Assembly: GCA_002428285.1 (NCBI GenBank)
Contig: DIVO01000012.1
Coordinates: 10,609-51,422, forward strand
Reading direction: 5' to 3'
DNA: 40,814 bases
Origin: Patescibacteria group bacterium UBA6130
Lineage (GTDB): Bacteria; Patescibacteriota; Microgenomatia; UBA12405; UBA6130
Below the pieces are notes generated by a model. It searched no databases and was not told the DNA's origin. It saw only the letters and a program-made list of their open reading frames with translations. This document shows, piece by piece, positions 9,377-30,006 of the stretch. The position numbers were made by a program, and so were the translations under genes. Each line of letters starts with the position of its first letter. Position 1 is the stretch's first letter.

Positions 9377-9408
9377 ACTAAATTCAAAATTAAAACAATA
9401 AGAGTTAG

Positions 9409-10663: not shown

Positions 10664-11027
10664 TCCACACCATACCCCCAAGGGGACGCGCACTAAAAAG
10701 GCATAACCTATGTTGACGCTTGCGTCATCAAAAAGTTTGCCCGATTAAGTGTGTGTCCCCAGTTCCCCTTTAATCAAAATCGAATTTTTTTGATAATAGG
10801 GGAGCTTAAAAATAGTTCCATGCACTTTGACCTCATGCGGGTTAAAAGAAGAAAACAAATAATATTAGTCATTCTTCTTATGATACCAAGCACTGCCATC
10901 AGAGATAATGTGTGATGAACACAGATATTACAAACCTTATTCACCGGAAGAAAGTGGTCGTAAAGAGAAAATTCGACTCAGTAGATCCCTAAGTAGCTAT
11001 ATGATAACAAAAGAGAGGTAAGACTAT

Positions 11028-11130: not shown

Positions 11131-12111
11131 ATGAAAAATAAAAAAAATAATACACTGATTTCAATTGTAATGCCCGTCTATAATACGGAGCGGTTTTTAC
11201 ATGCCTCTTTAAACTCGATCCTAAAGCAAACATATGAAAACTGGGAACTTATTTGCGTTGACGATGCTTCAACAGATAATTCACTCAAGATCTTGAAGTC
11301 TTATGCCAAAAAGGACAAAAGAATCCATGTGTTTGGACAAAACACAAATCAAGGAGTATCAAGAACTGCCAATTTTGCTCTTCGAAAAGCAAAAGGCACA
11401 CTCGTTGCCCGAATGGACGCAGATGATATCATGCTCCCAAGAAGGATAGAAAAACAGGTTAGATTTTTAAACAATAACCCTAAAGTTGTGGCTGTCGGCG
11501 GACAATGTTTATTGATAAACGAAAAAGGCAAAAAAATCGGGAGTAAATCTTTCCCCTTAAACCATGAAGCGATTTACAAGATGATCTACCAGGCAATGCC
11601 AATTCAACAGCCTACTCTAATGATAAGTAAAAAACTGCTTCCTAAAGGCTTTATTTGGTATGAAAAAGAGTTTACTACAGCCGAAGAGGTAGATTTACTT
11701 TTTAGACTGTTCAATTTTGGTAAAATTGCCAATCTTCCAGATTTCACTTTAAAATATAGACTACACGGCAATAACATATCATTAAAAAATCCAAAGGAAA
11801 CATTTCTTTTAACTTATCAAACACGCAAAGAAGCAATTAATAAACACGGGTATCGTCCAACGTTTTCTGCTAAAGTAATTAGTTGCGCACAATGGATGAC
11901 AATCCGGATAATTCCAAGCGCTGCCATATTTCCATTGTTTACTATTTGGCGAGGAGTTAAACCCTTTAGACCCAATCTCTTTAATCAGCTAAAAATTAAA
12001 CTTCCCAGAGAAGATTTTTCTATGACACATCAGGCTGGACAACTTATTGGTCATGCTTTATTGGCCATCTTTTTTGTGATTTTTAAAAAACTTAATAGAA
12101 TATGTTTATGA
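11131..12111 (+). CDS. Family 2 glycosyltransferase (GT-A fold)
   Basis: 326 aa. ISIVMPVYNTERFLHASLNSILKQTYENWELICVDDASTDNS and the DxD-type motif RMDADD. The C-terminal part is hydrophobic. Confidence 0.9.
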   Translation: MKNKKNNTLISIVMPVYNTERFLHASLNSILKQTYENWELICVDDASTDNSLKILKSYAKKDKRIHVFGQNTNQGVSRTANFALRKAKGTLVARMDADDIMLPRRIEKQVRFLNNNPKVVAVGGQCLLINEKGKKIGSKSFPLNHEAIYKMIYQAMPIQQPTLMISKKLLPKGFIWYEKEFTTAEEVDLLFRLFNFGKIANLPDFTLKYRLHGNNISLKNPKETFLLTYQTRKEAINKHGYRPTFSAKVISCAQWMTIRIIPSAAIFPLFTIWRGVKPFRPNLFNQLKIKLPREDFSMTHQAGQLIGHALLAIFFVIFKKLNRICL

Positions 12112-15100
12112 TTAAGTTCCAGTTAAAAAAATTCCTTCCTGTTGTTTTTTTGGTTTTTGTACTTTCTGCTTTATTTATTACAAACTACACTCCCGGAACT
12201 TACCTAACTGGCTGGGATAATCTTATGCCTGAACTTAATTTGGGCGTAAACATCAAAAGGTCACTCCTAGCAGTATGGCAAGAATATCAAGGGCTGGGAC
12301 TCGTTGGAGGCATGGGTCATGCAACAGAACTTATCAGACAACTTATAATTTTTCCCTTAAATCTCATTTTTCCGGTAAGCTTTATTCGCTATTTTTGGCA
12401 TTTTTCTATGTTAACACTTGGAACCCTAGGAGTTTATTTTATCCTTGGACAAATATCACTAAATAAAAATAAGACATTTAATCTGCTTCCAAGGGTTTTG
12501 GGGGCACTTTTTTACCTTCTAAATTTTGGAACAATTCAATTCTTTTGGCCTCCATATGAGGCTTTCTCAACTTTTTGGGGGTTTTTTCCCTGGCTAATCT
12601 TTTCTTTTTGGAATCTTATAAAAAAAAATAACAAAAGATCTCTTTATGTTTTTATTATTTTAAACATTCTCGCCACACCAAGCTTCTATATTCCAACACT
12701 ATTTGTTGTTTACCTCTTATGCCTTGCAGGCGTATCTTTAGGTTCCAAAAAGCCATTACCTTTAAGTTTTAAAGGGTTTTTTATCATTTTTATTATTAAT
12801 GCTTTTTGGTTATTACCATTTCTTTATTACTTATTAACCAACCTAAACAACACTCAAGAGGCTATAGCAAATCAAATATCAACAGAGGAGACTTTTTTAC
12901 GCAACCAGGGAAGGGGGACAATAAAAGATTTTCTTCTTATGCGTGGATATTATTACGATTTTCCCGATAGGGATGTGTCTCTTATGGAGACCTGGCATAA
13001 TCATTTTGAAAAAACAGGAATACTTCTACTTGGCTATTTTTTGGGAGGAATTGCTGTTTTTGGTTTATTGTTAACACTTATACGAAAACATCTCAATGGC
13101 TTCTCCTTAGGAATATTTATTATTTGGCTACTTGGTCTGATAGCACTTCTTTCGGCCATCCCACCGTTTGAACAAATAAACGATATTTTAAGACATATTC
13201 CACTCATAAATCAGGTGTTTCGTTCACCATTTACAAAATTTATCGTTCCAACAGCCTTTGCTTTTGCTTATTTCTTTGCAATATCTGTCCAATCTCTAGC
13301 TGATATTAAAATACGTTTTTTCGAATCAAATAAGTTGTTAAATTTTGTCATCGCTGGAGTGCTAGTAATAATGCTTGGAATATATAGCTCGCCAGCATTC
13401 TCGGGGAACTTCATATACCCAAAAATGAGGGTTGATATTCCTGGTGAATACCTTGAACTGATTGAATACCTGAAGGATAAACCAAGCATGGCAAGAATTG
13501 CCAACCTACCACAAGGAGATTTTTGGGGTTGGACTTTATACCGCTGGGGCGGAAGAGGCTCAGGATTTATTTGGTATGGAATTGAACAACCTATCCTTGA
13601 TAGAGCATTTGATGTTTGGAGCCTTAATAATGAACAATACTATTGGGAACTAAGCTATGCCCTACAAACACAAAATATTAGCTTGATTGAAAATATTTTT
13701 GATAAATATTTTATTGAATACGTCTTATTTGACGATAATGTATTTTTCCCTGGAGAAAAAGAATATGCAAAAATATCCCTTAACACTAAAAAACTACTAG
13801 AAGATTCTGAAAAGTTAAAAAAGGTGGCAGAATTTGGCAATCTTACTCTTTATAGATTTCATAAAAGCACTGTGCCAACAATAGTATTTGGTGACATTGT
13901 AGAATCTAATTTTAACGGGTTCTATTCCCAAGATTTATATTTTAATAATTTTGGAAATTATATAAGTAATTCGCAAAAACCAAACATCTACTACCCTTTT
14001 AACAGTATGTTTTCCAATAGATTTCAAAATGAACTTACCTTTTCTGTTGAAGAACTCGATGATAAACTTGTCTTGGAAATTCCAGTAGAATATTTTGAAA
14101 ATTTTAATTTAAAGCAAAATAACAATTTTTCTTCGGAAACAATTTTCCTAAATCAGGATATATCTCAAGGTTATCCCATAGCCCAAGTTGAAATACCTCT
14201 CGATGAACTAAGTAATTTCCGAAACTGCGCTTCCGAAAAATCTAACAGCGAATTTTACTCAAAAAGCAATAATGACATAACATTTGAAGCAGTTAATGCC
14301 TCCCCATGTGTAGATTGGAAATATAGTAGAGCCTTTAATGAGCTAGACCAACCATATATTGTAAAAATTGAATTTGAATATAAGTCAAAAACAGACGAAT
14401 GGCCTCAGTATTGTCTATTGAGTTCAAAGGGTAATTGCCTTAACAACAAAGACTTCCCCCTAAAAGGTTTTTCAAACCATTGGGAAATCTATTCAGAAGA
14501 AATCTTAATTGATCCAAAACAAGATAAGGTCGTCAATTTCTCACTAATCTTAGATGCGTATAATGAAAACATCGAAAAACAGATAAGCTATAGAAAAATA
14601 AAATTAACTTTTTACCCGGTCGATGCAAGCCGATTATCTAAAAATATTTCTTATAATATTATCCAAAATGGAGAAAACATTTATTTCGAAATCCCTAAAT
14701 TATTATCTAATATTTACATAGGCGATCTTGTTGAAAAAAATTTATATAAATTGAGATCAATAAACTGTAACTCTACTCTCCCCAATACTGGAAAAATTGA
14801 GCTAATAGATAATCAGCAAGAAAAGTTTATCAGACAAAGCGTCACGCATGGAGACTCATGTTTGATATGGAATTTCCCAGAATTGTCTCTTGATAGGGGA
14901 TGGCTGGTAAAAGTTGAATATCGCAATAAAAAAGGTTACCCCTTATTGGTCTCAGGTTTTGATGGACATGATAGATACAAATTTTTTTACACCAAATTAA
15001 CTTCGGAGGAAGAATGGCAAGATGCATATTTTGTAATTCCTGCATATTCACAAACACACAATGGACTTGCACTTCTTTTTGACACAATATCATACAATAA

Positions 15101-15509
15101 TTCCGAAAGCATAAACGATATCAAATCTCTCAAGATTTTTCCTCTTCCATGGGAATATCTGCAATCAATTTCTTACCAATCTGGTAATATTATTAAATCA
15201 GAAACACATTTAACTGAATTTAGCGGCAACATCTGGCATTATGAAATAAAAAATATTAATACAGCCACACAAACCAATAAAACACTTATTCTTCCCCAAT
15301 CTTACGATAAAGGATGGATAGCTATTACAGACAATTTCAAGCTTTTAGACCATTATGAGATAAGTAATTGGGCAAATGGATGGCAAATTGAGGGAAATCC
15401 GGAAAAAATCTATATAATCTTCTGGCCTCAAATCCTGCAATTCATCGGCTTTGGAGGATTGGGACTTGCCATGCTTCTTGTCACTTCAAAGAAGCGACTG
15501 ATAATCTGA
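12102..15509 (+). CDS. Very large polytopic membrane protein, possibly a GT-C-like glycan transferase (AftD/DUF3367- or YfhO-like)
   Basis: 1135 aa. About 12 or more predicted TM helices in the first 450 aa, a large Asn/Tyr-rich extracytoplasmic domain, and a terminal TM (ILQFIGFGGLGLAMLLV). The start overlaps the GT2 stop by 10 nt (ATGTTTATGA). The function is inferred from architecture and context only. Confidence 0.75.
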   Translation: MFMIKFQLKKFLPVVFLVFVLSALFITNYTPGTYLTGWDNLMPELNLGVNIKRSLLAVWQEYQGLGLVGGMGHATELIRQLIIFPLNLIFPVSFIRYFWHFSMLTLGTLGVYFILGQISLNKNKTFNLLPRVLGALFYLLNFGTIQFFWPPYEAFSTFWGFFPWLIFSFWNLIKKNNKRSLYVFIILNILATPSFYIPTLFVVYLLCLAGVSLGSKKPLPLSFKGFFIIFIINAFWLLPFLYYLLTNLNNTQEAIANQISTEETFLRNQGRGTIKDFLLMRGYYYDFPDRDVSLMETWHNHFEKTGILLLGYFLGGIAVFGLLLTLIRKHLNGFSLGIFIIWLLGLIALLSAIPPFEQINDILRHIPLINQVFRSPFTKFIVPTAFAFAYFFAISVQSLADIKIRFFESNKLLNFVIAGVLVIMLGIYSSPAFSGNFIYPKMRVDIPGEYLELIEYLKDKPSMARIANLPQGDFWGWTLYRWGGRGSGFIWYGIEQPILDRAFDVWSLNNEQYYWELSYALQTQNISLIENIFDKYFIEYVLFDDNVFFPGEKEYAKISLNTKKLLEDSEKLKKVAEFGNLTLYRFHKSTVPTIVFGDIVESNFNGFYSQDLYFNNFGNYISNSQKPNIYYPFNSMFSNRFQNELTFSVEELDDKLVLEIPVEYFENFNLKQNNNFSSETIFLNQDISQGYPIAQVEIPLDELSNFRNCASEKSNSEFYSKSNNDITFEAVNASPCVDWKYSRAFNELDQPYIVKIEFEYKSKTDEWPQYCLLSSKGNCLNNKDFPLKGFSNHWEIYSEEILIDPKQDKVVNFSLILDAYNENIEKQISYRKIKLTFYPVDASRLSKNISYNIIQNGENIYFEIPKLLSNIYIGDLVEKNLYKLRSINCNSTLPNTGKIELIDNQQEKFIRQSVTHGDSCLIWNFPELSLDRGWLVKVEYRNKKGYPLLVSGFDGHDRYKFFYTKLTSEEEWQDAYFVIPAYSQTHNGLALLFDTISYNNSESINDIKSLKIFPLPWEYLQSISYQSGNIIKSETHLTEFSGNIWHYEIKNINTATQTNKTLILPQSYDKGWIAITDNFKLLDHYEISNWANGWQIEGNPEKIYIIFWPQILQFIGFGGLGLAMLLVTSKKRLII

Positions 15510-18234: not shown

Positions 18235-19548
18235 ATGGACAGTTTAAAAGAGAAAAGAATTCAGCTTCCAAATAAACCCGGTGTTTACATCTATAAAGAT
18301 AAGAATAAAAAAGTTATATATATAGGTAAAGCATTATCACTCAAAAAAAGAGTAGCTTCATATTTTTATAAAGGGGTCAAAGATAAAAAAACCCTTCAGC
18401 TTATCTCACAAATCGATGATCTTGATCATATTGTAGTTATGTCCGAATTTGAAGCTTTATTACTTGAAGCAAAATTAATAAAGCAGTATCAGCCAAAGTT
18501 TAATGTTGACCTTAAGGATAATAAAAGATATATATACATTGCCTTAACAAGAGAAAAGTACCCTCGCCTTTTTATTGTGCGACGTCCTGAAATAGAGAGG
18601 AAACTTCTTGATTGGTATGGTCCTTTTCCTTCTTCAAGAGATACTCGCGAGGTATTAAAAATTATTAGAAACATTTTTCCTTTCAGATCTTGCGGTATTC
18701 TTCCCCACTCCCCTTGTCTTTTTTCGCATATTCACCTTTGTCCTGCTCCTTGCGTAAACGATTTAAAAGAATATAAAAATACCATCTCAAAAATCAGAAA
18801 ACTATTGTCTGGACAAACTTCAAAAATAATTAGAGAGTTAAAACAGGAAATGAAGATATTTTCTGAGATGGATAATTTTGAAAAAGCTCAAGAGATTAAA
18901 ATGCAAATAATAGCGCTTGAAAATATCACCAGAGGATGGAAAAATATCCCCAAAGACAGAATAGATATCGAAAAAATCCACTCAAGATTAAAAAAATTTA
19001 TCATAAGATACAGCACAATTGATCCGATCACAATCACAAAAATTGAAGGATATGACGTTTCAAATTTAGGAAAAAAAATAATTGTAGGGTCGATGGTAGC
19101 ATTTACCAAAGGAATTCCAGATAAAAATAATTATAGAAAATTTAAAATTAATTTTGACTTTAATCACAAAAATAGCAGAAAAAACCTGGATATCCAGTCA
19201 GACACTGAGTCTATGTATCAGATACTCAAAAGAAGGCTAAACCACCCTGAATGGATATATCCTCAGATAATTCTTTTGGACGGAGGAAAAGGCCAAATAT
19301 CTTCGGCTTTTAAGGCTTTAAAAGAAAAAAATCTTCATGACCAGATACCCATCCTTGGACTAACAAAAAGAAATGAAACGATTATCATACCCCAAATTGA
19401 AAAAGGTGAAATTAAAAAATGGAAATCCGTCAATTTATCAAAAAATTCGCGAGTTTTAAAATTACTGCAAAGAATTAGAGATGAATCCCACCGCTTTGCT
19501 CAGAATTATTACAAAACATTACATAGGAAATCCATTTTGGGAATTTAA
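18235..19548 (+). CDS. uvrC: Excinuclease ABC subunit C, short form lacking the C-terminal (HhH)2 domain
   Basis: 437 aa. GIY-YIG (PGVYIYKDKNKKVIYIGKA), UVR motif (NFEKAQEIKMQIIALENI), and an RNase H-like endonuclease region ending in DESHRFAQNYY. The protein stops about 20 aa after that. Confidence 0.9.
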   Translation: MDSLKEKRIQLPNKPGVYIYKDKNKKVIYIGKALSLKKRVASYFYKGVKDKKTLQLISQIDDLDHIVVMSEFEALLLEAKLIKQYQPKFNVDLKDNKRYIYIALTREKYPRLFIVRRPEIERKLLDWYGPFPSSRDTREVLKIIRNIFPFRSCGILPHSPCLFSHIHLCPAPCVNDLKEYKNTISKIRKLLSGQTSKIIRELKQEMKIFSEMDNFEKAQEIKMQIIALENITRGWKNIPKDRIDIEKIHSRLKKFIIRYSTIDPITITKIEGYDVSNLGKKIIVGSMVAFTKGIPDKNNYRKFKINFDFNHKNSRKNLDIQSDTESMYQILKRRLNHPEWIYPQIILLDGGKGQISSAFKALKEKNLHDQIPILGLTKRNETIIIPQIEKGEIKKWKSVNLSKNSRVLKLLQRIRDESHRFAQNYYKTLHRKSILGI

Positions 19549-19564
19549 GTTTGAACCTGTTTTT

Positions 19565-19573
19565 TGGTATAAT
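19565..19573 (+). promoter_or_regulatory. Extended -10 promoter (TGgTATAAT) upstream of tRNA-Glu
   Basis: TGGTATAAT at 19565-19573, 18 nt before the mature tRNA 5' end. Confidence 0.5.
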
Positions 19574-19591
19574 ACATTGTTGAAAATTAAT

Positions 19592-19663
19592 GGCCCCATC
19601 GTCTAGCGGTTAGGACGGCGGATTCTCATTCCGTCAACCGGGGTTCGATTCCCCGTGGGGTCA
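19592..19663 (+). tRNA. tRNA-Glu (anticodon CUC); CCA not encoded
   Basis: Hand-folded cloverleaf. Acceptor GGCCCCA/TGGGGTC, D arm GTCT-AGCGGTTA-GGAC, anticodon arm GCGGA-TTCTCAT-TCCGT, 4-nt variable loop, T arm CGGGG-TTCGATT-CCCCG, discriminator A. The sequence after it is CACATG. Confidence 0.85.
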
Positions 19664-19694
19664 CACATGGGGAATGTTCGTCAAAATGGGTCTC

Positions 19695-19743
19695 GCGACG
19701 CCGCGCGAGTGCGGCCGCGCGAAGCGTCGCAAACGGCTTTTTT
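19695..19743 (+). terminator. GC-rich hairpin plus T-run downstream of tRNA-Glu
   Basis: GCGACGC-CGCGCG (19695-19707) pairs with CGCGCG-aa-GCGTCGC (19716-19730). This is followed by AAACGGCTTTTTT. The GC richness is striking against the AT-rich background. Confidence 0.5.
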
Positions 19744-19940
19744 AAATCGTCCTTCAAAAAAAATGAAAACGCAAAAATTTTTAATGTGCTTTTGTCCTAT
19801 AACATGGGACAATTATTGTTTTAATTCTAAGTTAACTATACTTACTTTTCACATTTTTAACAACTAGGAGTTATGTTAGTTTTTCCCGAAAAATATTCAT
19901 AACTACCACATATTGTACATAGATAAATGCTCTCATGTTT

Positions 19941-19949
19941 TGTTATAAT
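19941..19949 (+). promoter_or_regulatory. Extended -10 promoter (TGtTATAAT) upstream of the 20010-22904 operon
   Basis: TGTTATAAT at 19941-19949, about 60 nt before the ATG at 20010. Confidence 0.4.
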
Positions 19950-20009
19950 TTCAACACTTATAGAAATTAACTAAAATTATAGTTAAAGTATTATTTTATT
20001 TTTAAATAT

Positions 20010-21122
20010 ATGGAAATAAGAGGAAGCGAATCAGATATTACAGTTTGGAACCCAAAACCATTCCCCATAGGAAATACTTTTTGGTTACCAAATAAAAATA
20101 ATAAAAAGACAACCATAAATTATGAAAAGAAAATCTCGGTTAAAGTTCCCTTAAGACTTAGCCCGATTATGTTGGATTTGACTCGTTTCGTACCTACAGG
20201 AATCAATGTACGAGAATATGGAGCAGGAGAGGTATCGATTGCTGTTAATTCTTATTTAAGTGTAATTTTAAGTTTAAACAAAAATAATGATTCTAAAATC
20301 AACGGAACAGATAAAGAGTCAGTCGTTCGTCATGCAATTGAGTTGTATAAAAAAGCCATTGGTGAAGATTTTGGGGTAGATATTAAGGTGGAGGTTGATA
20401 ATAATCTTTCTCATGTTGGATTAGGGACTACCCCTGCCCATATAAGCGCAATTATATTAGGAATTAATTCTTTATGTGATAACTATTTTGACAACAGAGA
20501 GCTATCTAGATTAATTACATTAAATTACGGTGAAGAGTTTTCGGGGGATAAAAACATGTTAGTTCCAGGAATCTCAACAGGAGGAGCATTTTGGAGTTGT
20601 ATTTTTGGAGGGATAAATGTAACTAGCGGAGATTTTTCAAATGTCTTTTCTTCAAAACTTAATACCGACCTTGATCTGATAGTTAGTATCCCAATTACAA
20701 AAGAAAAACAATGGGCTGAAAAAGGTTTTGAGATACCAATAATGGATTTGGTAAGAAAATATGACCGTTTTGATGCCGGAAAAATATGCCATTGGGTATT
20801 GATGAGGCTTATGCCAGCAATATTGGACAATGATGTAAAGAAAATTGGAGAAGTATTTTGGGATGTTACGCTGAACACATCTAAAGCTATTCCTCCGATT
20901 ATAAAACATGGAGTGTTTAGCACTTTTGATTTATTAGCAGAACTTTATGTTAATAATGTTGAGGGTGCATTTTTGTCATCGGCTGGCCCACTAATTGGGT
21001 GTTTTAGCATGGAAAATGGCAAAACAAAATTAATTGAAAGTTTATTTGATAAATATTCAATTCCATATAAAATAATGAAGATTGATAATAAAGGCATAGA
21101 AATTAATAAAATCAGTGATTAA
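20010..21122 (+). CDS. GHMP-kinase-superfamily protein, beta-ribofuranosylaminobenzene-5'-phosphate (beta-RFAP) synthase-like
   Basis: 370 aa. The GHMP phosphate-binding-type motif is in the variant form SHVGLGTTPAHISAIILG, which I associate with the HxGLGSGTQ form of beta-RFAP synthases. The N-terminal strand ISVKVPLRLSPIMLDL resembles their RLHxGxxDL start. Family placement is from memory, not from a search. Confidence 0.5.
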   Translation: MEIRGSESDITVWNPKPFPIGNTFWLPNKNNKKTTINYEKKISVKVPLRLSPIMLDLTRFVPTGINVREYGAGEVSIAVNSYLSVILSLNKNNDSKINGTDKESVVRHAIELYKKAIGEDFGVDIKVEVDNNLSHVGLGTTPAHISAIILGINSLCDNYFDNRELSRLITLNYGEEFSGDKNMLVPGISTGGAFWSCIFGGINVTSGDFSNVFSSKLNTDLDLIVSIPITKEKQWAEKGFEIPIMDLVRKYDRFDAGKICHWVLMRLMPAILDNDVKKIGEVFWDVTLNTSKAIPPIIKHGVFSTFDLLAELYVNNVEGAFLSSAGPLIGCFSMENGKTKLIESLFDKYSIPYKIMKIDNKGIEINKISD

Positions 21123-21675
21123 AGGAATTGTAGCTATTAGTGGCCAATCAGGCTCTGGAAAATCATTGTTATCTTCTTTTTTTACTGAAAATAAAAAATA
21201 TAAAGTAGTTAGTGTCTCTAAAACAATGACAGAAATATTTGAAAAAATGATACCAAATTTTTATCAAATTAGTGAAGAACAACGACAAAATAAAATTCTT
21301 AATTTAATAAAAATAGACCCAGATATAGCTTCGAAAACAATTTTTAATAAAATTAAAGATTTCCCAAATGATATAGTAGTGGTACTTGATGGAGTCAGGA
21401 GTGAAAAGGACTACGCCACATTATTGGGGCAGACAAAAATAATTAGAATTTTTATGTATTCAGATTTTGTAACTAGGGCTGAAAGAGTGAAAAATAGAGA
21501 TGGAAAAGAAGTTGGTGATTTGATTTTAAGAGACTCTTTAGATAACGAGATTGGACTACAAGAAATCTTTAGAAAGGCAAATTATGTTGTCTATAACTAT
21601 CATAAAATTGAAATTAAGGAAGTTAAAAAACAAATTAATCAAATATTAATAAAAGAAGATATTTTCTTATTGTAA
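21115..21675 (+). CDS. Small P-loop nucleoside/nucleotide-kinase-like protein (adenylate / dephospho-CoA kinase superfamily, archaeal UPF0200-like)
   Basis: 186 aa with a GTG start overlapping the upstream stop by 8 nt. Walker A is ISGQSGSGKS. It also has VVVLDGVRSEKDYATL and a lid-like RAERVKNRDGKE. Confidence 0.55.
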   Translation: MIKGIVAISGQSGSGKSLLSSFFTENKKYKVVSVSKTMTEIFEKMIPNFYQISEEQRQNKILNLIKIDPDIASKTIFNKIKDFPNDIVVVLDGVRSEKDYATLLGQTKIIRIFMYSDFVTRAERVKNRDGKEVGDLILRDSLDNEIGLQEIFRKANYVVYNYHKIEIKEVKKQINQILIKEDIFLL

Positions 21676-21680
21676 ATAAT

Positions 21681-22904
21681 ATGCATAATGTTAATTTTTT
21701 AAATAACTTTTATATTTTAAAAGATAATTTTTCCTTATTAAATTGGGATAGTTTAATCGGATTACCTGTAAATAATAGTAAAACAATCGATACTGAAACA
21801 ATATATCTTGACAACAAAAAACATAGTTTAGGTTTTGACAAAATACTATATTGTTGGAAAAATATCGATACCCTTGTTGATACCTACGAATTGAATGAAA
21901 TTAATTGTGGAGACGGCATAAATAAAGTTTTGATCAAAGACAAACTTTCAAACATATTGAAACTAACAAGTAATTTTACTGTCGACAACCAACCATTGGA
22001 AAAACTATGTCAGACAAAATCATCGAAATATTATATTGAAAATAAGAATAATAAAATCTTAGAGATTGAAAATATCTATGAAACAAGTTATTACAATGAG
22101 TTAGATATAAAAGCATTAGATTTATCAAAATACTTGTTGGTAAAAATTCAAATTAACAACTCCAAATTAGGCGATAAAATAAGAAATATTTTAATTGATG
22201 CCGGTGCTATCTTTATACCTCCTCTTTTTTATGTTTTTAGTAATGAATTAATGGCTCTATTAGGTAAACAAAGTGGACAAAAACCATATTTAGAATACAA
22301 AGACCTTGAAATTGAGGCTAAACTTAATTCAACATCTAGTAACGCATTTGGTTTAATCTATGACTTTATAAACAATAATGGATTGGTTGGTTTTGAAATA
22401 GAAAAGGGGTTTCCACATTTTTTATCAAGAGGATTGAGAGTTTGTTATCTAAAAAATAACAAGGGATTATTTAATAAAATAGTATTTTATGGTTTTAAGG
22501 AACCAGCAATTGTTAAAAAAGCGTCAATGGAACTGGTGAAAGACAACAAAGGATTAAATTGTATTTTATCAAGAGAGGAAATTAAAGAGGAAGACAAAGT
22601 AACCGAAGAAGATATATTAAAAACTGCTGGAAGTGAGGCAATTTGGCTGGATAAAAGAAAAATGGTTTTTTGGATAGAAAATAAAATAACAGGAAGGGTT
22701 TACCATGTGGCAAATGATAAGTGTATTAGTAATAAAACAAATGATCTGTCGCAAGTTGAAATTGAATATGCTGGAACTGTTAAGAAGAATTCACCCAACA
22801 AACAGGCAATAATAGATGATATTACTAAAATTACGAGCACATTACTTAATAAATTTGATTTTTTGACACCAACAGTTGTTCGAAAAGAAGAATGGTTTGT
22901 TTAG
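21681..22904 (+). CDS. Two-domain protein: uncharacterised N-terminal half plus C-terminal CYTH (triphosphate tunnel metalloenzyme) domain
   Basis: 407 aa. The ExExK signature is LEIEAKL near residue 209. A C-terminal acidic strand QVEIEYAG lies near residue 357. The basic residues between them (RGLRVCYLK, KRKMVFW) fit a tunnel fold. Confidence 0.55.
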   Translation: MHNVNFLNNFYILKDNFSLLNWDSLIGLPVNNSKTIDTETIYLDNKKHSLGFDKILYCWKNIDTLVDTYELNEINCGDGINKVLIKDKLSNILKLTSNFTVDNQPLEKLCQTKSSKYYIENKNNKILEIENIYETSYYNELDIKALDLSKYLLVKIQINNSKLGDKIRNILIDAGAIFIPPLFYVFSNELMALLGKQSGQKPYLEYKDLEIEAKLNSTSSNAFGLIYDFINNNGLVGFEIEKGFPHFLSRGLRVCYLKNNKGLFNKIVFYGFKEPAIVKKASMELVKDNKGLNCILSREEIKEEDKVTEEDILKTAGSEAIWLDKRKMVFWIENKITGRVYHVANDKCISNKTNDLSQVEIEYAGTVKKNSPNKQAIIDDITKITSTLLNKFDFLTPTVVRKEEWFV

Positions 22905-23701
22905 TTATTAATTTTGTCAAATTTAATAATGTCACCGATATTTATATCTAATTCTTTTGAAGTGTCCAAACACCTAACTTTACCTAACTCAGTGTAATTA
23001 TTAATTGAACTACCATAATAAATTGCTATTGTGTTGTCAGGTAACGCCTTCATGGAAAAGGTAAATATTGCCTCACATCTTTTTGTGTTATTTACAAATA
23101 TTTCATATTTATCACCATCAGAAGGATTATCTAGTTTCGTATATATTTTTGGAACACCAAAATTATCTATATGCAAAACTACACCATCTTCTAGCGTGGG
23201 ATAACTTAATCGTTGACTATCAAAAGGTACCCCAAGTTCTGACAATGGTATTCCAGATGCAATTTTAGCAGCTATCGGAGCATGAATATACTTGCCACCG
23301 AATGAAATAAAATTTTGACCCTTGAGACCTTCTTGACTAGATTCGAATATTTGTTTTACTCCAAAATCTTTAATTAACCACCCTAGCGTTCCAGTATTTT
23401 CACCAACAAATTTAAACCCATTATTAGTTTCACCAATAATTCGAGCCCTATCTTTTCTTTCTGTTGTTAGGGGGTTTAGTATGACCAGAAAAATTGTATT
23501 ATTTGGTTGATAGTTATCTGCCATCAATCTTGTTAAAAAAGCACCGTTTATCAAGGAAAACTCTTTGGCGTTAACAATTGGTTCAACTTCAACTTTATCT
23601 TCTGCACCAATTTTTTCTAATTCTGACACTAATACAGCTCTAATTTCGTTTGCGGCGACATCGATACAATCTGTAATAACGACTAATCTAATTTTACTCA
23701 T
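22901..23701 (-). CDS. DUF62-family SAM hydroxide adenosyltransferase / chlorinase-fluorinase-like protein
   Basis: 266 aa. FGGKYIHAPIAAKIASG resembles the family FHGRDxFAPxAA motif, and VLHIDNFGVPKI resembles the family DxFGN motif. The N-terminal VVITDCID is a divergent form of the usual TDFG. Its stop overlaps the convergent CYTH gene stop by 4 nt. Confidence 0.6.
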   Translation of the reverse strand: MSKIRLVVITDCIDVAANEIRAVLVSELEKIGAEDKVEVEPIVNAKEFSLINGAFLTRLMADNYQPNNTIFLVILNPLTTERKDRARIIGETNNGFKFVGENTGTLGWLIKDFGVKQIFESSQEGLKGQNFISFGGKYIHAPIAAKIASGIPLSELGVPFDSQRLSYPTLEDGVVLHIDNFGVPKIYTKLDNPSDGDKYEIFVNNTKRCEAIFTFSMKALPDNTIAIYYGSSINNYTELGKVRCLDTSKELDINIGDIIKFDKINN

Positions 23702-23763
23702 AGTTTAAAAGTAATAACAATTAATGAATTATACTATAGTTTTAGCCTATATTTAGATATTAA

Positions 23764-24849
23764 TTACCTTGTTACCTCAAAAGATTCAACTTCATCCTTT
23801 AGTTTCTTGGCTTCCTTATTTTCTTCAAAGTATATTCTGATTGGTTCAATAATCATATCTAAATATCGTGAAAGATTATCTTTTAAATCTAGGGGGTATA
23901 TTTTCCCATCTTGATAATCATTCTGTAATTTAAGATACGAATCAAAATCTACATTTCCACCGTATTCATTTTTCCTTTCTATAGTTATTTTTTCAAATTT
24001 TGGAAAAATAATGTACCTAAAATATTCAAGCACTGGATTGTTTTCGACCTCATTGGGAGGGCAGTATGCTTTTTTAATTTTTTCATAAATTTCTTCTTTT
24101 TTGTCTGTCATAAAAATTGCTGAATCTGGCTTAGATTTAGACATTTTTAAAGCTATTGTTCGTTCAAGTTTATCCTCTACATTTTGAATTAAATCTGTTG
24201 GAGGTTTTAAACTAATCAACATGTGATGATGGACAGCCGCAGGCTTTTCATATCCTAACTCATCTGCAATTTGTCGAGCTAACATATTAACTTTTCTCTG
24301 ATCCATCCCAAGTTGAGCTATATCTGCTTTAAGATAAAATATATCAGTAGCTTGCATAGCGGGGTACATTATCTGAGCTGCTGTAAGATTGTCAGATTCG
24401 TTTCTTCCCATAATCTGAGAACAACGAATTATTCTTTTTAATGTTGTAGCTCGACCAATTTTTAATACTGTCAGCCAATAGTCAGATTCTTTAACCAAAT
24501 CAGAAGCCCAAATAAATTCAACATCATTTGTATCTAATCCACAGGCTTTCCAAACTTCAATAAAATATTGACCAACTTTTTTAATTTTGTCTAAGTCTCC
24601 ACCCATTTTGTTGTTTGCAAAGGCATGCCAGTCGGCAACAAGTACCTTAAAATGTATACCCGCTTTCAACATCTTTTGAATATTCATTGCTCTAACAAAT
24701 CCTTGAGCAATATGAATTCGTCCAGATGGTTCAAATCCGTCATAAGCAATTAGTTTTTTTCCTTTTTCAATTTTAGCTTTAATTTCTTCTGCACCAATAA
24801 CTTCCTCTCCTACTTCATATATAAGTTTCATTTTTTCTTCTGTTGTCAT
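23764..24849 (-). CDS. tyrS: Tyrosyl-tRNA synthetase, archaeal/eukaryal type
   Basis: Track ORF starts at TTG 24903. I prefer the ATG at 24849 (MTTEEKMKLIYE), which has TATAAT 6 nt upstream. Motifs: FEPSGRIHIAQG (HIGH region), MYPAMQATD, KMSKSKP, KKAYCPP. There is no bacterial KFGKT loop and no S4-like C-terminal domain. Confidence 0.85.
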   Translation of the reverse strand: MTTEEKMKLIYEVGEEVIGAEEIKAKIEKGKKLIAYDGFEPSGRIHIAQGFVRAMNIQKMLKAGIHFKVLVADWHAFANNKMGGDLDKIKKVGQYFIEVWKACGLDTNDVEFIWASDLVKESDYWLTVLKIGRATTLKRIIRCSQIMGRNESDNLTAAQIMYPAMQATDIFYLKADIAQLGMDQRKVNMLARQIADELGYEKPAAVHHHMLISLKPPTDLIQNVEDKLERTIALKMSKSKPDSAIFMTDKKEEIYEKIKKAYCPPNEVENNPVLEYFRYIIFPKFEKITIERKNEYGGNVDFDSYLKLQNDYQDGKIYPLDLKDNLSRYLDMIIEPIRIYFEENKEAKKLKDEVESFEVTR

Positions 24850-24855
24850 AGTTGT

Positions 24856-24861
24856 ATTATA
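24856..24861 (-). promoter_or_regulatory. -10 box TATAAT 6 nt upstream of the tyrS ATG (candidate leaderless transcript)
   Basis: The minus strand reads cgaTATAATacaactATG. Confidence 0.45.
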
Positions 24862-24960
24862 TCGATTTTTTGTTTCCTGTGTGTAATGTTTGTTTGAATC
24901 CAAATATGTTTAAACATCCCGACGGTAGTCGGGATACAATGGAGTGTTCCCCGCGCGCGC

Positions 24961-24988
24961 AAAAAAGAAAATTCCGCAAAGCGGAATT
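24961..24988 (-). terminator. Intrinsic terminator on the minus strand inside the tyrS / 25185 divergent intergenic region
   Basis: The minus strand reads AATTCCGCTTTGCGGAATTTTCTTTTTT (8-bp stem, 3-nt loop, T-rich tail). No annotated minus-strand gene lies upstream of it. Confidence 0.55.
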
Positions 24989-25173
24989 ATAAATAACGCG
25001 AACAGCTTGGCCCATCGGTGCGGGCGGTGGGCCGACGCTGTGAGCTCAATATTAATAATTATTTTTAAAAAACGTTCGAATTTCGTCATAACAGCTCACA
25101 TATATATTAAATTTATAGACCTTTTCAACAATACAACTCTTGACAAAACCAATCAGTTTTTCTAATTTTAAAG

Positions 25174-25179
25174 TATAAT
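25174..25179 (+). promoter_or_regulatory. -10 box TATAAT 5 nt upstream of the ATG at 25185 (candidate leaderless transcript)
   Basis: The sequence is aagTATAATttcacATG. Confidence 0.45.
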
Positions 25180-25184
25180 TTCAC

Positions 25185-27362
25185 ATGATTAGCAAATCTA
25201 AGCATTTTTTTGAAAATATCAAAGCTAATAGATATGTAAAAATAACAATTTTATCTTCCTCTTCATTAATTTTACTATTCGGCTTGATCGCAGGTCTTTA
25301 TCTACTAAACCAAGAACAAGATGTTAGGAAAAAAGCTGCAACCACTATCGAAGCTAATTATTATGTTTCTCCTGATGGAAATGATGCAAATCCAGGAACT
25401 AAAAGTTTACCCTGGAGGACAATTCAAAAAGCAGCTAATACTCTCGTTGCTGGTGAAACTGTTAGTGTTTTAGCTGGAAATTATGGTGAAAGTGTACGCA
25501 TGACAAGATCGGGTGTTGGTGAAAACGCCAGAATTCGTTTTGTTGCCGATGGACTTGTTACCTTAAACAACTTCTCTATAGAAGCAAATTATGTTGAATT
25601 AAACGGATTCACACTCTCATCAACTTACTGTGATTGGAATAGTACAATTTCAATTAAGGGTAGTTATAATCTTATTCAGAACAATACAGTTAAAGATTCA
25701 ACAAGACAAGGAATTGGAGTTTTGCATCCCTCAAACGGGGTTATCCTCAGAAAAAATACCGTTATTAGGGCTAATGTTAATGGCTTTATTATCACAGGAA
25801 CAAATCATATTATAGAAGATAACGATATAGCCGATATTAGGGATCATATTGGAACATGCTCTTTCCATATGGAAGCAAATGCCATTGATTTTCATGGTTC
25901 AGGGCATATTATTCGAAGGAACTACATACATGATTTTTTAATAGCTAATCAAAATGGATCTCCTCATATAGATGCATTCCAAACTTACTCAGATTTGGGT
26001 AATAACAAGCCCGCTGCTAAAGATGTACTTATCGAGGGAAATAAAGTTTTTATGGGTGATTCCAGTAAACAATTGTTAGAAGAAGGAATTAGCGGAACTC
26101 AGGGAATTCACGCATTTATGATTGAAGGCACTACCTCAGATATTTGCAGTAACCTAACAATTAAGGATAATATTATTGAATCTTGGGGAGGGATCAATGG
26201 AAATCCTGTAAAAACAAATATTAGAATATACAATAATATTTGGCGAAGCAGTTTAAATATTCCAAGTTCTTATTGGCCTAGCGCAATTAACTTGTCAGGA
26301 GTAACTGGATATGAAATTTATAATAATATTTTTGTTGATTACTCCTATTCACACATTATTATTCAAAACGGTACAACCGGAGGATCCTACGATCATAACA
26401 TCTTTTGGAATTCAGATGGAAGCACTCCTCGCTTAGATGGATATACTGTGGCAATTCATGATAAGCGCGGCATTGATCCAAAGTTTGTTGTCAATTTTTC
26501 CGATCTTCATCCACAATCCACATCCCCTTCCATTGATACCGGATACAATTTGTCTACTAAACTCAAAAGTCTTTTTGGTAACGAATATATAGACTATGAC
26601 ATCGAAGGTAATACGCGTTCACAAGAAGATCTATATGACATAGGCGCATATAAGTTTAGCACTAATTCAATAACTCCCGAACCAATTATTACAGCTACTC
26701 CTTCGCCAACACCAACACCCACATTAAAACCGACTGCGACACCTACTCTAAAACTGACAGCAACACCCATACCAACAGCCATAGTAACTCCAACACCTAA
26801 TATTAATGAGCTGATTGTAGATAATAAAAGTGCCGACTTTACAACAATATCTAATCAAGATGCCTGGATTGAATATATCAATAATGATATACGAAATTTT
26901 AATGGCTCACATCATTTTAATTCTAGCGCCGGTACTGGCAGTGATAGAGCCACTTGGTCATTTATAGTTCCTAAACCAGGTCGTTACCAAATTTATGCAT
27001 GGTGGTGGGATGGGTTGTATCGTCCAACTGATGTTCCATATACCATCAACCATCTCTATGGTTCAACTACAGTAGAAAAGGATCAAACAATAAATGGTGG
27101 ACGTTGGAATATTTTGGGTACCTATGATTTTTCAGATCATGGTTCTGTATTTGTTACAGATGAAGTGACAAATGGAAAAGATATTGTTGCTGACGCTATA
27201 AGATTAGTTTATATTGGCGCATTACCCACACTTACACCAACTCCGATACCTCCAACTCCCACAACTGTTGCAGATCCAATAAAAACAACAGGCGGATGTG
27301 GTAATGGTAAATGTTCCTTCTGGGAACGTGTTTTCGGATACTGTCCGATAGATTGTAAATAA
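25185..27362 (+). CDS. Secreted or anchored right-handed parallel beta-helix protein with Pro/Thr linkers, a golvesin/CBM-like C-terminal domain and a Cys-rich tail
   Basis: 725 aa. Signal anchor ILSSSSLILLFGLIAGLYLL. DUF1565/pectate-lyase-type start YYVSPDGNDANPGTKSLPWRTIQKAAN with repeated N-rich beta-helix turns. PT linker TPSPTPTPTLKPTATPTLKLTATP. A domain with RATWSFIVPKPGRYQIYAWW...ADAIRLV. The tail is GGCGNGKCSFWERVFGYCPIDCK. Confidence 0.75.
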   Translation: MISKSKHFFENIKANRYVKITILSSSSLILLFGLIAGLYLLNQEQDVRKKAATTIEANYYVSPDGNDANPGTKSLPWRTIQKAANTLVAGETVSVLAGNYGESVRMTRSGVGENARIRFVADGLVTLNNFSIEANYVELNGFTLSSTYCDWNSTISIKGSYNLIQNNTVKDSTRQGIGVLHPSNGVILRKNTVIRANVNGFIITGTNHIIEDNDIADIRDHIGTCSFHMEANAIDFHGSGHIIRRNYIHDFLIANQNGSPHIDAFQTYSDLGNNKPAAKDVLIEGNKVFMGDSSKQLLEEGISGTQGIHAFMIEGTTSDICSNLTIKDNIIESWGGINGNPVKTNIRIYNNIWRSSLNIPSSYWPSAINLSGVTGYEIYNNIFVDYSYSHIIIQNGTTGGSYDHNIFWNSDGSTPRLDGYTVAIHDKRGIDPKFVVNFSDLHPQSTSPSIDTGYNLSTKLKSLFGNEYIDYDIEGNTRSQEDLYDIGAYKFSTNSITPEPIITATPSPTPTPTLKPTATPTLKLTATPIPTAIVTPTPNINELIVDNKSADFTTISNQDAWIEYINNDIRNFNGSHHFNSSAGTGSDRATWSFIVPKPGRYQIYAWWWDGLYRPTDVPYTINHLYGSTTVEKDQTINGGRWNILGTYDFSDHGSVFVTDEVTNGKDIVADAIRLVYIGALPTLTPTPIPPTPTTVADPIKTTGGCGNGKCSFWERVFGYCPIDCK
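26715..26768 (+). repeat. Imperfect 24-nt tandem repeat encoding the Pro/Thr linker
   Basis: The units are acacccacattaaaaccgactgcg and acacctactctaaaactgacagca, followed by acaccc. Confidence 0.6.
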
Positions 27363-28599: not shown

Positions 28600-30006
28600 C
28601 TATTGGCAATTACTATACAAATTGCATGCCATACTAAGAGCATTTTCCATGCCCATAAAATCATATATTTCTAAAATCCTTGGAATAAAAACCCCTTTTA
28701 CTCTAACCATTCTACTAGGTGTAAATTTAAATTCACGAATCCCCAGTCTAGTAAGTATTTCCGTTATTAACTCCTTATTCTCCTCTACCCATCTATCAAT
28801 ACCCGTAATATCATCTTGCGACAGATTTCGTAAAGCGCGTGTATAACCTTCTCTCTGGGCTTTTTTAACTAGTACATTACTAAACTCTTTCTCCAGACCT
28901 TCCTTAGTAATAGTTTCTAAATAAGGAATTGAATATTCTTGCCATGTCTTACCAAATACTTCACCATCTCTTGTCCAGTCCTGATCTTCAAATTCATCAG
29001 AGTACCCTCTGTCATCTAGGCTCATTTTCGAAAGAACCCTTCTGGGATCGGTTGAAACCCAAAAGGGTGCACGCAATATTTTTTCCTGCGCATGTTCTTT
29101 TCTCGCAGCTTGAATTCTTCGACCAAAATCAATATCAGATGCACGCTTTAAACCTCCGTTAAAACCACCAACAGCACAATATGCTGCAGCGCTGAATGCC
29201 ATGGCTCTCCCTGAAGTCCAAGGAATATAATTTCCATCACGGTTATGTAACATGCGATAATATCTATGAAAATAAAAAGCAGCAGCTAATAAAGGATACT
29301 TACTAAAAGACTCAGGTGGATATGTAAAACTTCCAACAAGGACATCTGGCAAGGATCCTTTTCGATCAAAACCCTCTAAAACAGAGGAAAGATAGTTTCC
29401 GGAAAGATCATAAAGATCTGCGTCGCTACTAACTATTATATGATCATCGTCGTATTTTTGAGTTGCTGCAATTCTCCATAAATTTAGATCGAATAAAAGT
29501 TTTCTTATACTTCCAAACGGCATCGATTCTTCAACAACAACATGTGTATAACAAATATCGACCTCTGGGTGATTATCCTGAAATTCAACAACCTGCCTAC
29601 CAGTTGAATCTGGTACTTCGCTTGCATGATGATTATCAAGGATGAAAATTCTAGCACGTTCTAAACATGCGGAAGGCTGTTCTAAAAAACTTTCTAATGT
29701 GCGTCTTATATTCTTTCCCTCTTGACTTGATGCAATACAAATAGATATTTTTTTATCTCTGGCAGTTGAACCTGGAATTGTTTCGTCGAGCGATCTAAGA
29801 AACTGAATGTAAGCATTACTGTGTTGCTTTAAATAATTTGCAATCTCAACGCCCTCAACTAACTCTGCATCAGAATTATCTACTAAAGTTTGTGACTTTG
29901 ACTTTAAGCCTTCATAGATTCCAAAGAACAAAGATGAAGAATCTTTCATTTGCCTCTCAATCAACTCAGTTGGAATTTTTGTGCCTTTAAATTCACTTTC
30001 AACCAT
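28600..30006 (-). CDS. GT-A-fold glycosyltransferase-like protein with long N- and C-terminal extensions
   Basis: 468 aa. ISICIASSQEGKNIRRTLESFLEQ (GT2-type first strand and helix), DxD-type SSDADLYD, and later GRAMAFSAAAYCAVGGFN. The C-terminal roughly 110 aa has no motif I recognise. Confidence 0.6.
   Translation of the reverse strand: MVESEFKGTKIPTELIERQMKDSSSLFFGIYEGLKSKSQTLVDNSDAELVEGVEIANYLKQHSNAYIQFLRSLDETIPGSTARDKKISICIASSQEGKNIRRTLESFLEQPSACLERARIFILDNHHASEVPDSTGRQVVEFQDNHPEVDICYTHVVVEESMPFGSIRKLLFDLNLWRIAATQKYDDDHIIVSSDADLYDLSGNYLSSVLEGFDRKGSLPDVLVGSFTYPPESFSKYPLLAAAFYFHRYYRMLHNRDGNYIPWTSGRAMAFSAAAYCAVGGFNGGLKRASDIDFGRRIQAARKEHAQEKILRAPFWVSTDPRRVLSKMSLDDRGYSDEFEDQDWTRDGEVFGKTWQEYSIPYLETITKEGLEKEFSNVLVKKAQREGYTRALRNLSQDDITGIDRWVEENKELITEILTRLGIREFKFTPSRMVRVKGVFIPRILEIYDFMGMENALSMACNLYSNCQ

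Follow-up and report, generated by a model that had tools for sequence, protein, structure and literature searches.

The window analysed here is a stretch of 40,814 nt from the Patescibacteria group bacterium UBA6130 (contig DIVO01000012.1), and its subject is a cluster of five genes. Three of them lie on the (+) strand and encode, in this order, a GHMP-fold protein similar to ForT and beta-RFAP synthase (20010-21122, 370 aa), a P-loop kinase that resembles nucleoside monophosphate (NMP) kinases (21115-21675, 186 aa), and a 407-aa protein (21681-22904) to which we gave the working name protein X. These three genes, GHMP, kinase and X, are called the trio below. The other two genes lie on the (-) strand, where a gene for a tyrosyl-tRNA synthetase (TyrRS) of the archaeal/eukaryotic type (23764-24903) leads a transcription unit; the second gene of this unit encodes a 266-aa protein similar to the DUF62 (SAM_HAT) hydrolases of S-adenosylmethionine (SAM) (22901-23701). 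The DUF62-like gene converges on the gene of X, with an overlap of 4 nt at the stop of the latter. An earlier note on this DNA had described the trio and the DUF62-like gene as a four-gene module close to a tRNA-Glu gene. Its coordinates of the open reading frames (ORFs), the overlaps and the position of the tRNA-Glu gene were all reproduced with the ORF map, ARAGORN and Rfam.

Conservation of the gene set and its arrangements

The close family of the GHMP protein is very rare, as a word-indexed search of 5.8 billion proteins returned only six close homologs. About seven lineages share the genes for GHMP, kinase and X as a group, joined by the DUF62-like gene or the TyrRS gene wherever the contig reaches far enough. 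Hence, the co-occurrence in other genomes, the absence of which would have spoken against a module according to the earlier note, was found. The number of genes needs correction, however: an archaeal-type TyrRS gene lies within one gene of the module in every trio lineage with a contig extending past it, which makes this a set of five genes and not of four. Beside the trio, TyrRSs of the archaeal type were seen exclusively.

At least five different arrangements exist, with genes overlapping by 4-30 nt. In the window, GHMP, kinase and X follow each other in the same direction and face the oppositely oriented DUF62-like and TyrRS genes. The same order of the trio was found in L101, where the contig ends after X, and in L009, where X is followed by TyrRS in the same direction and the genes overlap. 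In L001-L004 and L021 the order of the trio is reversed relative to transcription (DUF62-like, X, kinase, GHMP), and a divergent TyrRS gene precedes it. L031 and L063 possess the order DUF62-like, X, kinase, GHMP, TyrRS, all in one direction, L007 and L008 show the same order ending in a TyrRS pseudogene, and in L102 a GHMP gene is followed directly by the DUF62-like gene. Between the more distant lineages, the orthologs share only 33-48% identity. Low identity together with shuffled gene orders indicates that the set survived long divergence and repeated rearrangement, and the grouping of these genes is more than chance.

The TyrRS pseudogene of L007 (4579-5674; also present in the tail of L008) contains a frameshift and three in-frame TAA codons, two of which occupy positions of Glu. 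An independent assembly shows the first of these TAA codons as well. All four enzyme genes of L007 are intact, and in two of them TAA serves as the stop codon.

Two other lineages have mobility genes next to the module. A tyrosine recombinase of the phage integrase family is encoded directly downstream of it in L001-L004 (L003 6051-6701; L001 9100-9459), and a DDE transposase (IS240-like) directly upstream of it in L031 (442-1359), which is indirect support for horizontal mobility. One member of the set, L021 (JBHLLE010000685.1), is a 2.8-kb contig that was found in the genome scan and is binned as Candidatus Hermodarchaeota. It is near-identical to the L001 group, the longer contigs of which carry bacterial genes such as yidD; therefore, the bin assignment is doubtful and, judged by these sequences, L021 was probably mis-binned.

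Properties of the encoded proteins

In Pfam, the GHMP protein matched GHMP_kinases_N only, and this match was below the threshold. Its top NCBIfam matches were models of beta-RFAP synthase (E 2.9e-11 and 5.4e-9). The AlphaFold2 (AF2) model (pLDDT 76, pTM 0.81) retrieved ForT (8aoz) as the top PDB match in Foldseek (E 4.2e-16, TM 0.64-0.72), followed closely by homoserine kinase and then by enzymes of the mevalonate pathway. Using the family profile, ForT was also the best PDB match at the sequence level (E 2.6e-12). The assignment as beta-RFAP-synthase-like made earlier is thus upheld by NCBIfam, Foldseek and the profile, all of which place the protein closest to the beta-RFAP synthase/ForT family, but far below the curated cut-offs. 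The six close homologs behaved in the same way, with beta-RFAP synthase as the best match and scores far below the cut-off. An exhaustive profile search yielded 297 cluster representatives with an E of 1e-3 or lower, 41 of them with 1e-30 or lower, and the wider family comprises about 300 clusters at 50% identity. Of 94 GHMP relatives, 63 came closest to beta-RFAP synthase among the curated families, and the best E value, 2.7e-30, is still weak. Archaeal shikimate kinase was considered as well and rejected, as it was absent from the NCBIfam matches of the protein at E up to 0.1 and minor among its relatives. Scans of metagenomes with the GHMP alignment and of viral contigs for the GHMP family gave no match.

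In the structure of ForT, Arg-19 on strand 1 and the His-99 loop bind phosphoribosyl pyrophosphate (PRPP) (PMC8183095). In the profile alignment, Arg-19 (APARL) pairs with the family motif vPsRl, in which R49 is invariant in 94 sequences, and the loop from His-99 to Ser-104 (QHSGFGS) pairs with kHvGlGS, that is, H135-x-G-L-G-(S/T) including G137 and G139; in the family, the paired residues vary little or not at all. Based on sequence and model, we read the GHMP protein as a distant sister of the ForT, RHP and beta-RFAP synthases that stands outside the curated families, and its predicted activity is that of a PRPP-dependent aryl C-ribosyl-5'-phosphate synthase. Members of the wider family are fused to further domains: to an adenylate kinase (P-loop) in P0091, to a PrnB-like, Trp-binding haem domain in P0045 and P0056, one of which also has HEPN_Toprim_N, and to a SAM-dependent methyltransferase in seven proteins. 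PrnB is a member of the superfamily of Trp-binding haem dioxygenases.

The kinase gene begins with GTG and overlaps the GHMP stop by 8 nt. Both features had been recognized before and are borne out by the ORF map, and the earlier assignment as a P-loop kinase holds as well; the GTG start is further supported because the ortholog in L101 begins at the same position, with an ATG (MIKK...) and the same 8-nt overlap. Six orthologs share the Walker A motif GQSGSGKS, the motif DGVR (DG-x-R) and an Arg-rich lid, R-x-x-R...RD. The best PDB matches were 3h0k and 3lw7, archaeal AdkA-like proteins (SSO1041 of S. solfataricus), at E 1.9e-7 over residues 5-172 and thus almost the whole protein. Matches to archaeal CMP kinase and CoaE were weak and missed all curated cut-offs, e.g., TIGR02173 with 25.8 vs 102 bits. 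Weak and generic P-loop matches were also obtained with PADLOC, among them VakA at E 1.3e-7; a literature search on "VakA" gave nothing useful. By its sequence, the kinase resembles small-molecule NMP kinases.

Protein X of the window matched neither Pfam (CYTH and VTC included) nor NCBIfam nor the PDB sequence profiles, and its assignment comes from motifs and predicted structure. The N-terminal half (residues 1-203, 21681-22289) belongs, according to the family alignment and the Pfam matches of its relatives, to a VTC-like domain of the triphosphate tunnel metalloenzyme (TTM) type. Its relatives share the motifs R-x-E-E-R, IYFNNDD, SLKAR and R-x-E-x-K, five of eight relatives match Pfam VTC with this half, and the family profile matches Vtc4 in the PDB (E 0.007, N-terminal half). 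In X of the window and in its closest relative, P0008, the strand-1 motif R-x-E-x-(K/R) is lost from this half, which therefore looks degenerate. The C-terminal half (residues 204-407, 22290-22904) is a predicted active tunnel-type phosphohydrolase domain, as suggested by its invariant columns, the AF2 model and Foldseek. Invariant throughout the family are E210-I-E212-A-K214, R298/E300/K302 and Q358-x-E360-x-E362-Y-x-G; this set of motifs (ExExK, basic residues, ExE) is, as far as sequence can tell, the strand pattern of TTM enzymes. The top Foldseek matches of the AF2 model (pLDDT 77) were the RNA triphosphatases Pct1 and Cet1, the VTC complex and the vaccinia capping triphosphatase, with TM-scores of 0.2-0.3 and the aligned half unspecified. 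When the two halves were aligned to each other with hhalign, the result was negative, leaving an internal duplication without support. Of the "CYTH fusion" suggested for this gene, the membership in the TTM superfamily stands, by motifs and predicted structure, whereas CYTH itself was not detected by any sequence profile. Altogether, sequence and model suggest that X is probably a tandem TTM protein with one active domain.

Relatives of X occur also in other settings. In L103 (180-2703), the tandem TTM protein P0011 is followed by the gene for SAM synthetase (MetK), which is a second link between a tunnel enzyme and SAM. More distant relatives stand alone in contigs of the DPANN type, one of which is annotated as Woesearchaeota, and have as neighbours a class II aminoacyl-tRNA synthetase (aaRS; tRNA-synt_2b + HGTP_anticodon) or ribosomal protein genes together with a DUF7121 protein (L011-L015 8001-10810, L016 7093-9335).

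The DUF62-like protein contains the SAM_HAT_N domain (Pfam E 2.8e-10, 40.6 bits vs a gathering score of 26.3), so that the presence of the DUF62 domain is well founded. Its PDB matches were 2zbu and MJ1651 (E 2e-7 to 1e-6); with the family profile as query, E fell to 2e-15. The sequence likeness to the fluorinase FlA and the chlorinase SalL was weak (E 0.018-0.12), and the NF058624 equivalog was matched with 22.3 bits against a cut-off of 350. DUF62 SAM hydrolases possess a His-Arg-Asp triad, under strict conservation, that activates water (PMC10491745). Compared with the canonical proteins 2zbu and MJ1651, VxDPGVG is changed to VVNP and FHGRD to FGGKY in the window protein. Thus, the triad Asp is replaced by Asn76 and the triad His by Gly135, and both replacements are invariant in 42 non-redundant representatives of the subfamily, which we call TDC-type after its TDCxDVA motif. 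Arg87, invariant as well, sits two positions off the column of the triad Arg. Further invariant positions are D11, C12, D14, His140, H177-I-D-N-F-G (with D179), K185, S231, S232, E238 and V242-R243. This pattern of conservation is that of a constrained enzyme family with a predicted different active site. The statement of the earlier note that DUF62 cleaves SAM to adenosine is therefore unsupported for this protein, as the Asp and His of the hydrolases are replaced.

The TyrRS matched NCBIfam NF006330 with 405.6 bits (cut-off 220) and contains KMSKS, in agreement with the archaeal type assigned to it before. Since the NF006330 match, like the alignment with the orthologs, starts only at residue 19, the true start is probably the ATG at 24849, and the listed TTG probably lies too far upstream. 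The gene has a GC-rich 5' leader (24904-25065, (-) strand), the predicted structure of which has a minimum free energy of -55.6 kcal/mol (z = -4.15, none of 200 shuffled sequences as stable). It includes a terminator-like hairpin (24988-24970) followed by a U-run, about 65 nt ahead of the annotated start. The leader matched no Rfam family, T-box included, and, judged by its fold statistics, may act as an attenuator or riboswitch.

TDC-type genes and aminoacyl-tRNA synthetases

A metagenome scan with the TDC-type alignment identified 156 relatives, from which 79 loci were kept; neighbours were counted over 49 non-redundant loci. Only two of the 79 loci, L031 and L063, have the trio alongside the TDC-type gene. 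The subfamily is thus widespread and mostly found without the trio, and the idea that the DUF62-like gene is specific to the module had to be given up. The most common neighbour, present at 17 of the 49 loci, was an aaRS of class Ic. Four kinds were observed: archaeal-type TyrRS, bacterial-type TyrRS, tryptophanyl-tRNA synthetase (TrpRS) and a divergent TrpRS-like paralog. Among the genes within three genes of a TDC-type gene, 17 of 216 encoded an aaRS, compared with 1 of 233 at a distance of at least five genes (Fisher p = 3.4e-5).

Other frequent neighbours were an alpha/beta hydrolase of ~261 aa (14 loci), a radical SAM protein of ~312 aa (13), a PPDK_N/PEP-utiliser phosphotransferase (11) and an unknown protein of ~396 aa (8), in addition to a B12-binding radical SAM protein, a methyltransferase and an S66 LD-carboxypeptidase. 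They form alternative enzyme sets around the TDC-type gene (L029 10762-13595; L065 1408-4263; L024 175-2148; L056 2775-7640; L076 2369-7891; L074 3046-6818). Four types were distinguished: radical SAM protein, alpha/beta hydrolase and the ~396-aa protein; PPDK_N/PEP-utiliser and hydrolase; TrpRS, its paralog and B12-radical SAM protein; and TrpRS, its paralog and S66 LD-carboxypeptidase. A search near the other TDC-type genes with a broadened hidden Markov model of the GHMP family revealed no extra GHMP relatives. The TDC-type copy of the window is closest (57-64% identity) to those of L023, L024 and L029, where the trio is absent if the contig is long enough to tell. The picture, then, is that of a core pair consisting of a TDC-type enzyme and a Tyr- or Trp-tRNA synthetase, to which varying enzyme sets are attached, the trio being one of them.

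Relation to known systems

Full-text literature searches revealed no account of this combination of genes, nor of a link between TDC-type proteins and aaRSs. The enzyme superfamilies are known, but no previous description seems to exist of the cassette, of the tandem TTM family or of the TDC-type subfamily and its association with aaRSs. With ForT, PyfQ and the RHP/beta-RFAP synthases of the formycin, pyrazofurin and methanopterin pathways, the GHMP protein shares, at a sequence identity of about 18%, the GHMP fold, the strand-1 Arg of the PRPP site and the loop His-x-G-x-G-S/T. The partners differ: in place of the partner enzymes of those pathways, an NMP-kinase-like protein, a tandem TTM, a SAM_HAT-like protein and TyrRS are found here, and the family has GHMP fusions of its own.

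A parallel in gene content is the conserved operon saci0718-0720 of S. acidocaldarius, which encodes a TTM (SaTTM), a demonstrated DUF62 (R)-SAM hydrolase and a nicotinamide mononucleotide (NMN) adenylyltransferase (bioRxiv 10.1101/2025.08.29.672840). The operon is described in this 2025 preprint; the paper on SaTTM makes no mention of it. There, too, a tunnel metalloenzyme and a member of the DUF62 family share an operon with an enzyme that handles a mononucleotide. However, the DUF62 protein of that operon is an active hydrolase, whereas Asp and His are gone here; the place of the NMN adenylyltransferase is taken here by a ForT-like protein and a kinase, and an aaRS is lacking there. SaTTM is a small single-domain CYTH protein, in contrast to the 407-aa tandem protein X.

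FlA and SalL, the SAM-dependent synthases of 5'-halo-5'-deoxyadenosine, belong to the same fold superfamily as the TDC-type proteins and share with them the absence of the triad, which in FlA and SalL goes along with a non-water nucleophile (PMC10491745). The sequence similarity is weak, however, and the TDC-type subfamily has its own invariant Cys12, Asn76 and His140. Vtc4 and Cet1/Pct1 resemble X in the tunnel-type beta-barrel, which is tentatively predicted for X, and the acidic strand-1 motif, and relatives of X match Pfam VTC; unlike them, X is a tandem protein with a degenerate first domain and possesses neither SPX nor transmembrane parts nor capping partners. In plants (TTM1/TTM2), one of the extra domains of TTM proteins is probably a uridine-kinase-like P-loop kinase. 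If so, this parallels the pairing of kinase and TTM at our locus, although it is a fusion there and a matter of adjacent genes here, and the kinase subfamilies differ. Additional domains are known from some of the plant homologs of TTM (PMC9582702).

Possible function of the cassette

Our favoured reading, a tentative one that we would not yet call probable, is that of a rare, conserved and probably mobile five-gene cassette that builds or processes a nucleotide-like metabolite, of the aromatic C-ribonucleotide type, from a tyrosine-related aromatic compound. The folds and families, the conservation of residues that bind ligands, the absence of those needed for hydrolysis, the coupling of the genes and their co-occurrence are the observations from which we propose substrates, order of steps and product. 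In a first step, the GHMP enzyme would couple PRPP to an aromatic acid or phenol, probably tyrosine-related, to give an aryl C-ribosyl-5'-phosphate (a "pseudo-NMP"). The translationally coupled, NMP-kinase-like enzyme would then convert this compound to the di- or triphosphate, and the C-terminal tunnel domain of X could hydrolyse or cyclise the triphosphate chain or act on tripolyphosphate. In a fourth step, the triad-less SAM_HAT-like enzyme might transfer the 5'-deoxyadenosyl group of SAM to a non-water nucleophile, as fluorinase and chlorinase do; alternatively, it may bind a ligand composed of adenosine and an amino acid. Finally, TyrRS would be inherited along with the other genes since the aromatic substrate, or else the target, is related to tyrosine, and it might supply activated Tyr or represent a spare, insensitive target. 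Support for a cassette of this kind comes from the GHMP fusions with adenylate kinase, PrnB-like and methyltransferase domains, from the TTM/DUF62 operon of Sulfolobus and from the X relative beside MetK.

Several results weigh against this reading. The GHMP protein stays far under the curated cut-offs for beta-RFAP synthase (NF040726, 43.1 vs 328 bits; TIGR00144, 35.7 vs 113.5 bits), and homoserine kinase is a nearly equal match to its structural model, which leaves room for a kinase activity. The TM-scores of the modelled X are low, and its C-terminal half alone matched no sequence profile in the PDB or in Pfam (CYTH). None of the downstream enzymes of the formycin, pyrazofurin and methanopterin pathways is present with the module. 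As TDC-type genes occur mostly without the trio, their role may be a general one and not a step of this pathway, and the trio-linked copies fall into three separate clades in a rough neighbour-joining tree. Since the linked TyrRS has decayed in L007, a further TyrRS must exist in that lineage, and the linked one is not strictly required by the module. Moreover, a metabolite of this complexity would be an uncommon product of a very small genome.

A broader interpretation shifts the weight from the trio to the core pair. TDC-type enzyme and Tyr/Trp-tRNA synthetase would then form the centre of a modular pathway of ultra-small bacteria, possibly also of archaea, that has so far escaped notice and makes adenosyl- or C-nucleotide-type metabolites tied to aromatic amino acids, for instance an aminoacyl-nucleoside directed at an aaRS or a new cofactor, and the trio would be one of several interchangeable plug-in sets, next to the alternative sets listed above. 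We regard this as possible, but on the doubtful side.

Compared with a biosynthetic cassette, salvage of nucleosides, SAM or adenine nucleotides in an auxotrophic symbiont, the first idea of the earlier note, seems rather unlikely. The DUF62-like enzyme would split SAM or run a reverse reaction of the type ATP + Met -> SAM + tripolyphosphate, the kinases would re-phosphorylate the resulting ribose or nucleoside and the TTM would remove tripolyphosphate. It is true that adenosine, ribose-phosphate or polyphosphate compounds are the substrates of all four families, that TTMs and SAM enzymes are linked elsewhere (the TTM, SAM hydrolase and NMN adenylyltransferase genes of Sulfolobus; the X relative by MetK), and that the host looks like a reduced, low-GC bacterium. 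However, the DUF62-like protein has lost the Asp and His that activate water, and the GHMP protein fits poorly, resembling PRPP enzymes that form C-C bonds and not ribokinases or nucleoside kinases. Salvage also leaves unexplained the constant link to TyrRS and the extreme rarity of the trio (6 word-indexed homologs; 41 clusters at E below 1e-30).

The constant adjacency of TyrRS and the position of TDC-type genes beside TyrRS and TrpRS types at 17 of 49 loci would be accounted for by a system acting on tRNA-Tyr or Tyr-tRNA, i.e., the modification, repair or quality control of RNA ends or aminoacyl-adenosine. Here, the TTM would be an RNA triphosphatase, as are the best Foldseek matches of X, Pct1 and Cet1; the kinase would act on polynucleotides or aminoacyl-tRNA, and the SAM_HAT-like protein would read the aminoacyl-A76 end. 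A relative of X in a DPANN-like contig also adjoins a class II aaRS. Pfam and NCBIfam scans detected no RNA-binding domain in the module proteins, though, and the kinase is like small-molecule NMP kinases. The module of L007 is intact despite its decayed TyrRS, and we know of no RNA substrate of ForT-like enzymes. We therefore consider this explanation unlikely.

If the linked TyrRS is dispensable, as in L007, where a second TyrRS is implied, it could be a spare and insensitive copy within a resistance or immunity island directed against an aminoacyl-nucleoside toxin that targets aaRSs, and the remaining enzymes would phosphorylate or cleave the toxin. The mobility genes flanking the module fit such an island, and other TDC-type loci carry families with known inactivators of antibiotics (S66 LD-carboxypeptidases, PPDK_N/PEP-utilisers, alpha/beta hydrolases) as well as extra TrpRS paralogs; the S66 LD-carboxypeptidases are the family of MccF. 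ForT-like enzymes are biosynthetic, however, and the radical SAM, B12-radical SAM and methyltransferase neighbours look biosynthetic as well, not protective. There is no known toxin, and a second-copy status of the window TyrRS is unsupported, which makes an island of this kind improbable.

Defence or signalling based on a nucleotide signal, with the TTM as a cyclase that makes a second messenger and kinases that tune it, is very improbable in our view. Some CYTH enzymes cyclise NTPs (PMC8233210), the cassette is rare and probably mobile, and the kinase has its weak PADLOC match to VakA (E 1.3e-7). Nevertheless, three of the four proteins, all but the kinase, had no PADLOC match, no effector (nuclease, pore, TIR, SAVED) is encoded nearby, the scan of viral contigs turned up no member of the GHMP family, and the link to TyrRS would be unexplained. 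Least probable of all is that unrelated housekeeping genes are held together by inherited synteny or form a methanopterin-like cofactor pathway, for although each family has housekeeping members and the nearest curated GHMP family is the methanopterin enzyme beta-RFAP synthase, the set stays together despite shuffled order and 33-48% identity between lineages, the trio and DUF62-like proteins miss the curated equivalog cut-offs widely, and no other methanopterin gene was detected in the scanned window ORFs or related loci.

To our knowledge, the synthesis of C-nucleotides has otherwise been described only for actinomycete antibiotics and methanopterin. If the GHMP enzyme of the proposed cassette truly makes a C-glycosidic bond, this chemistry would extend to reduced, uncultured bacteria and involve new partner enzymes. 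The TDC-type subfamily, with its lost hydrolase residues and strongly conserved active site, may catalyse a SAM-dependent adenosyl transfer of a new kind, and its adjacency to four kinds of Tyr/Trp-tRNA synthetase genes is statistically supported; the literature offered no explanation for it. Small soluble enzymes and a five-gene cassette offer a way to approach the metabolism of unculturable organisms.

Genomic surroundings of the cassette

The tRNA-Glu gene (anticodon CTC) is located at 19592-19664 on the (+) strand (ARAGORN; Rfam tRNA, 59.8 bits), 345 nt ahead of the GHMP gene start, and is given here as context, with no claim that it belongs to the module. Just 3' of it, at 19688-19745 on the same strand, a GC-rich stem is followed by a T-run. 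Shuffled sequence folds just as stably as this stem (z = -0.08), which is probably the terminator of the tRNA. The earlier note had pointed to hairpins at both ends of the block from the tRNA to tyrS. GC-rich, hairpin-forming sequence is indeed present at both sites, but not in the sense of island boundaries, one being the post-tRNA stem and the other the tyrS leader. Borders of an integrated island were rejected as an explanation for the hairpins, as no direct or inverted repeats join the two ends. Likewise, integration at tRNA-Glu was not borne out near the window module: the tRNA 3' end is not repeated at the far boundary (19400-25400), so that an att-like repeat is missing, and no integrase-like gene was found among the scanned ORFs of 18.5-26.5 kb.

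The GC content drops to 25-28% over 21-23 kb, the region of the kinase and X genes, compared with about 31-37% across most of the window. This dip, together with the mobility genes in other lineages, makes horizontal mobility of the module plausible. Outside the cassette, a local GC peak of 43-49% vs about 34% at 9001-11000 spans a 335-aa ORF (9656-10663) without a Pfam or Rfam match, and two large ORFs, 12102-15509 (1135 aa) and 28600-30006 (468 aa), contain no Pfam domain at E up to 1e-5. Gene content (UvrABC, Lon, YidD) and low GC make a placement in the CPR/Patescibacteria plausible. Further genes of the window encode UvrA/B/C, Lon, SerRS, a LysRS-type protein and ThiI, which identifies the host as a bacterium.

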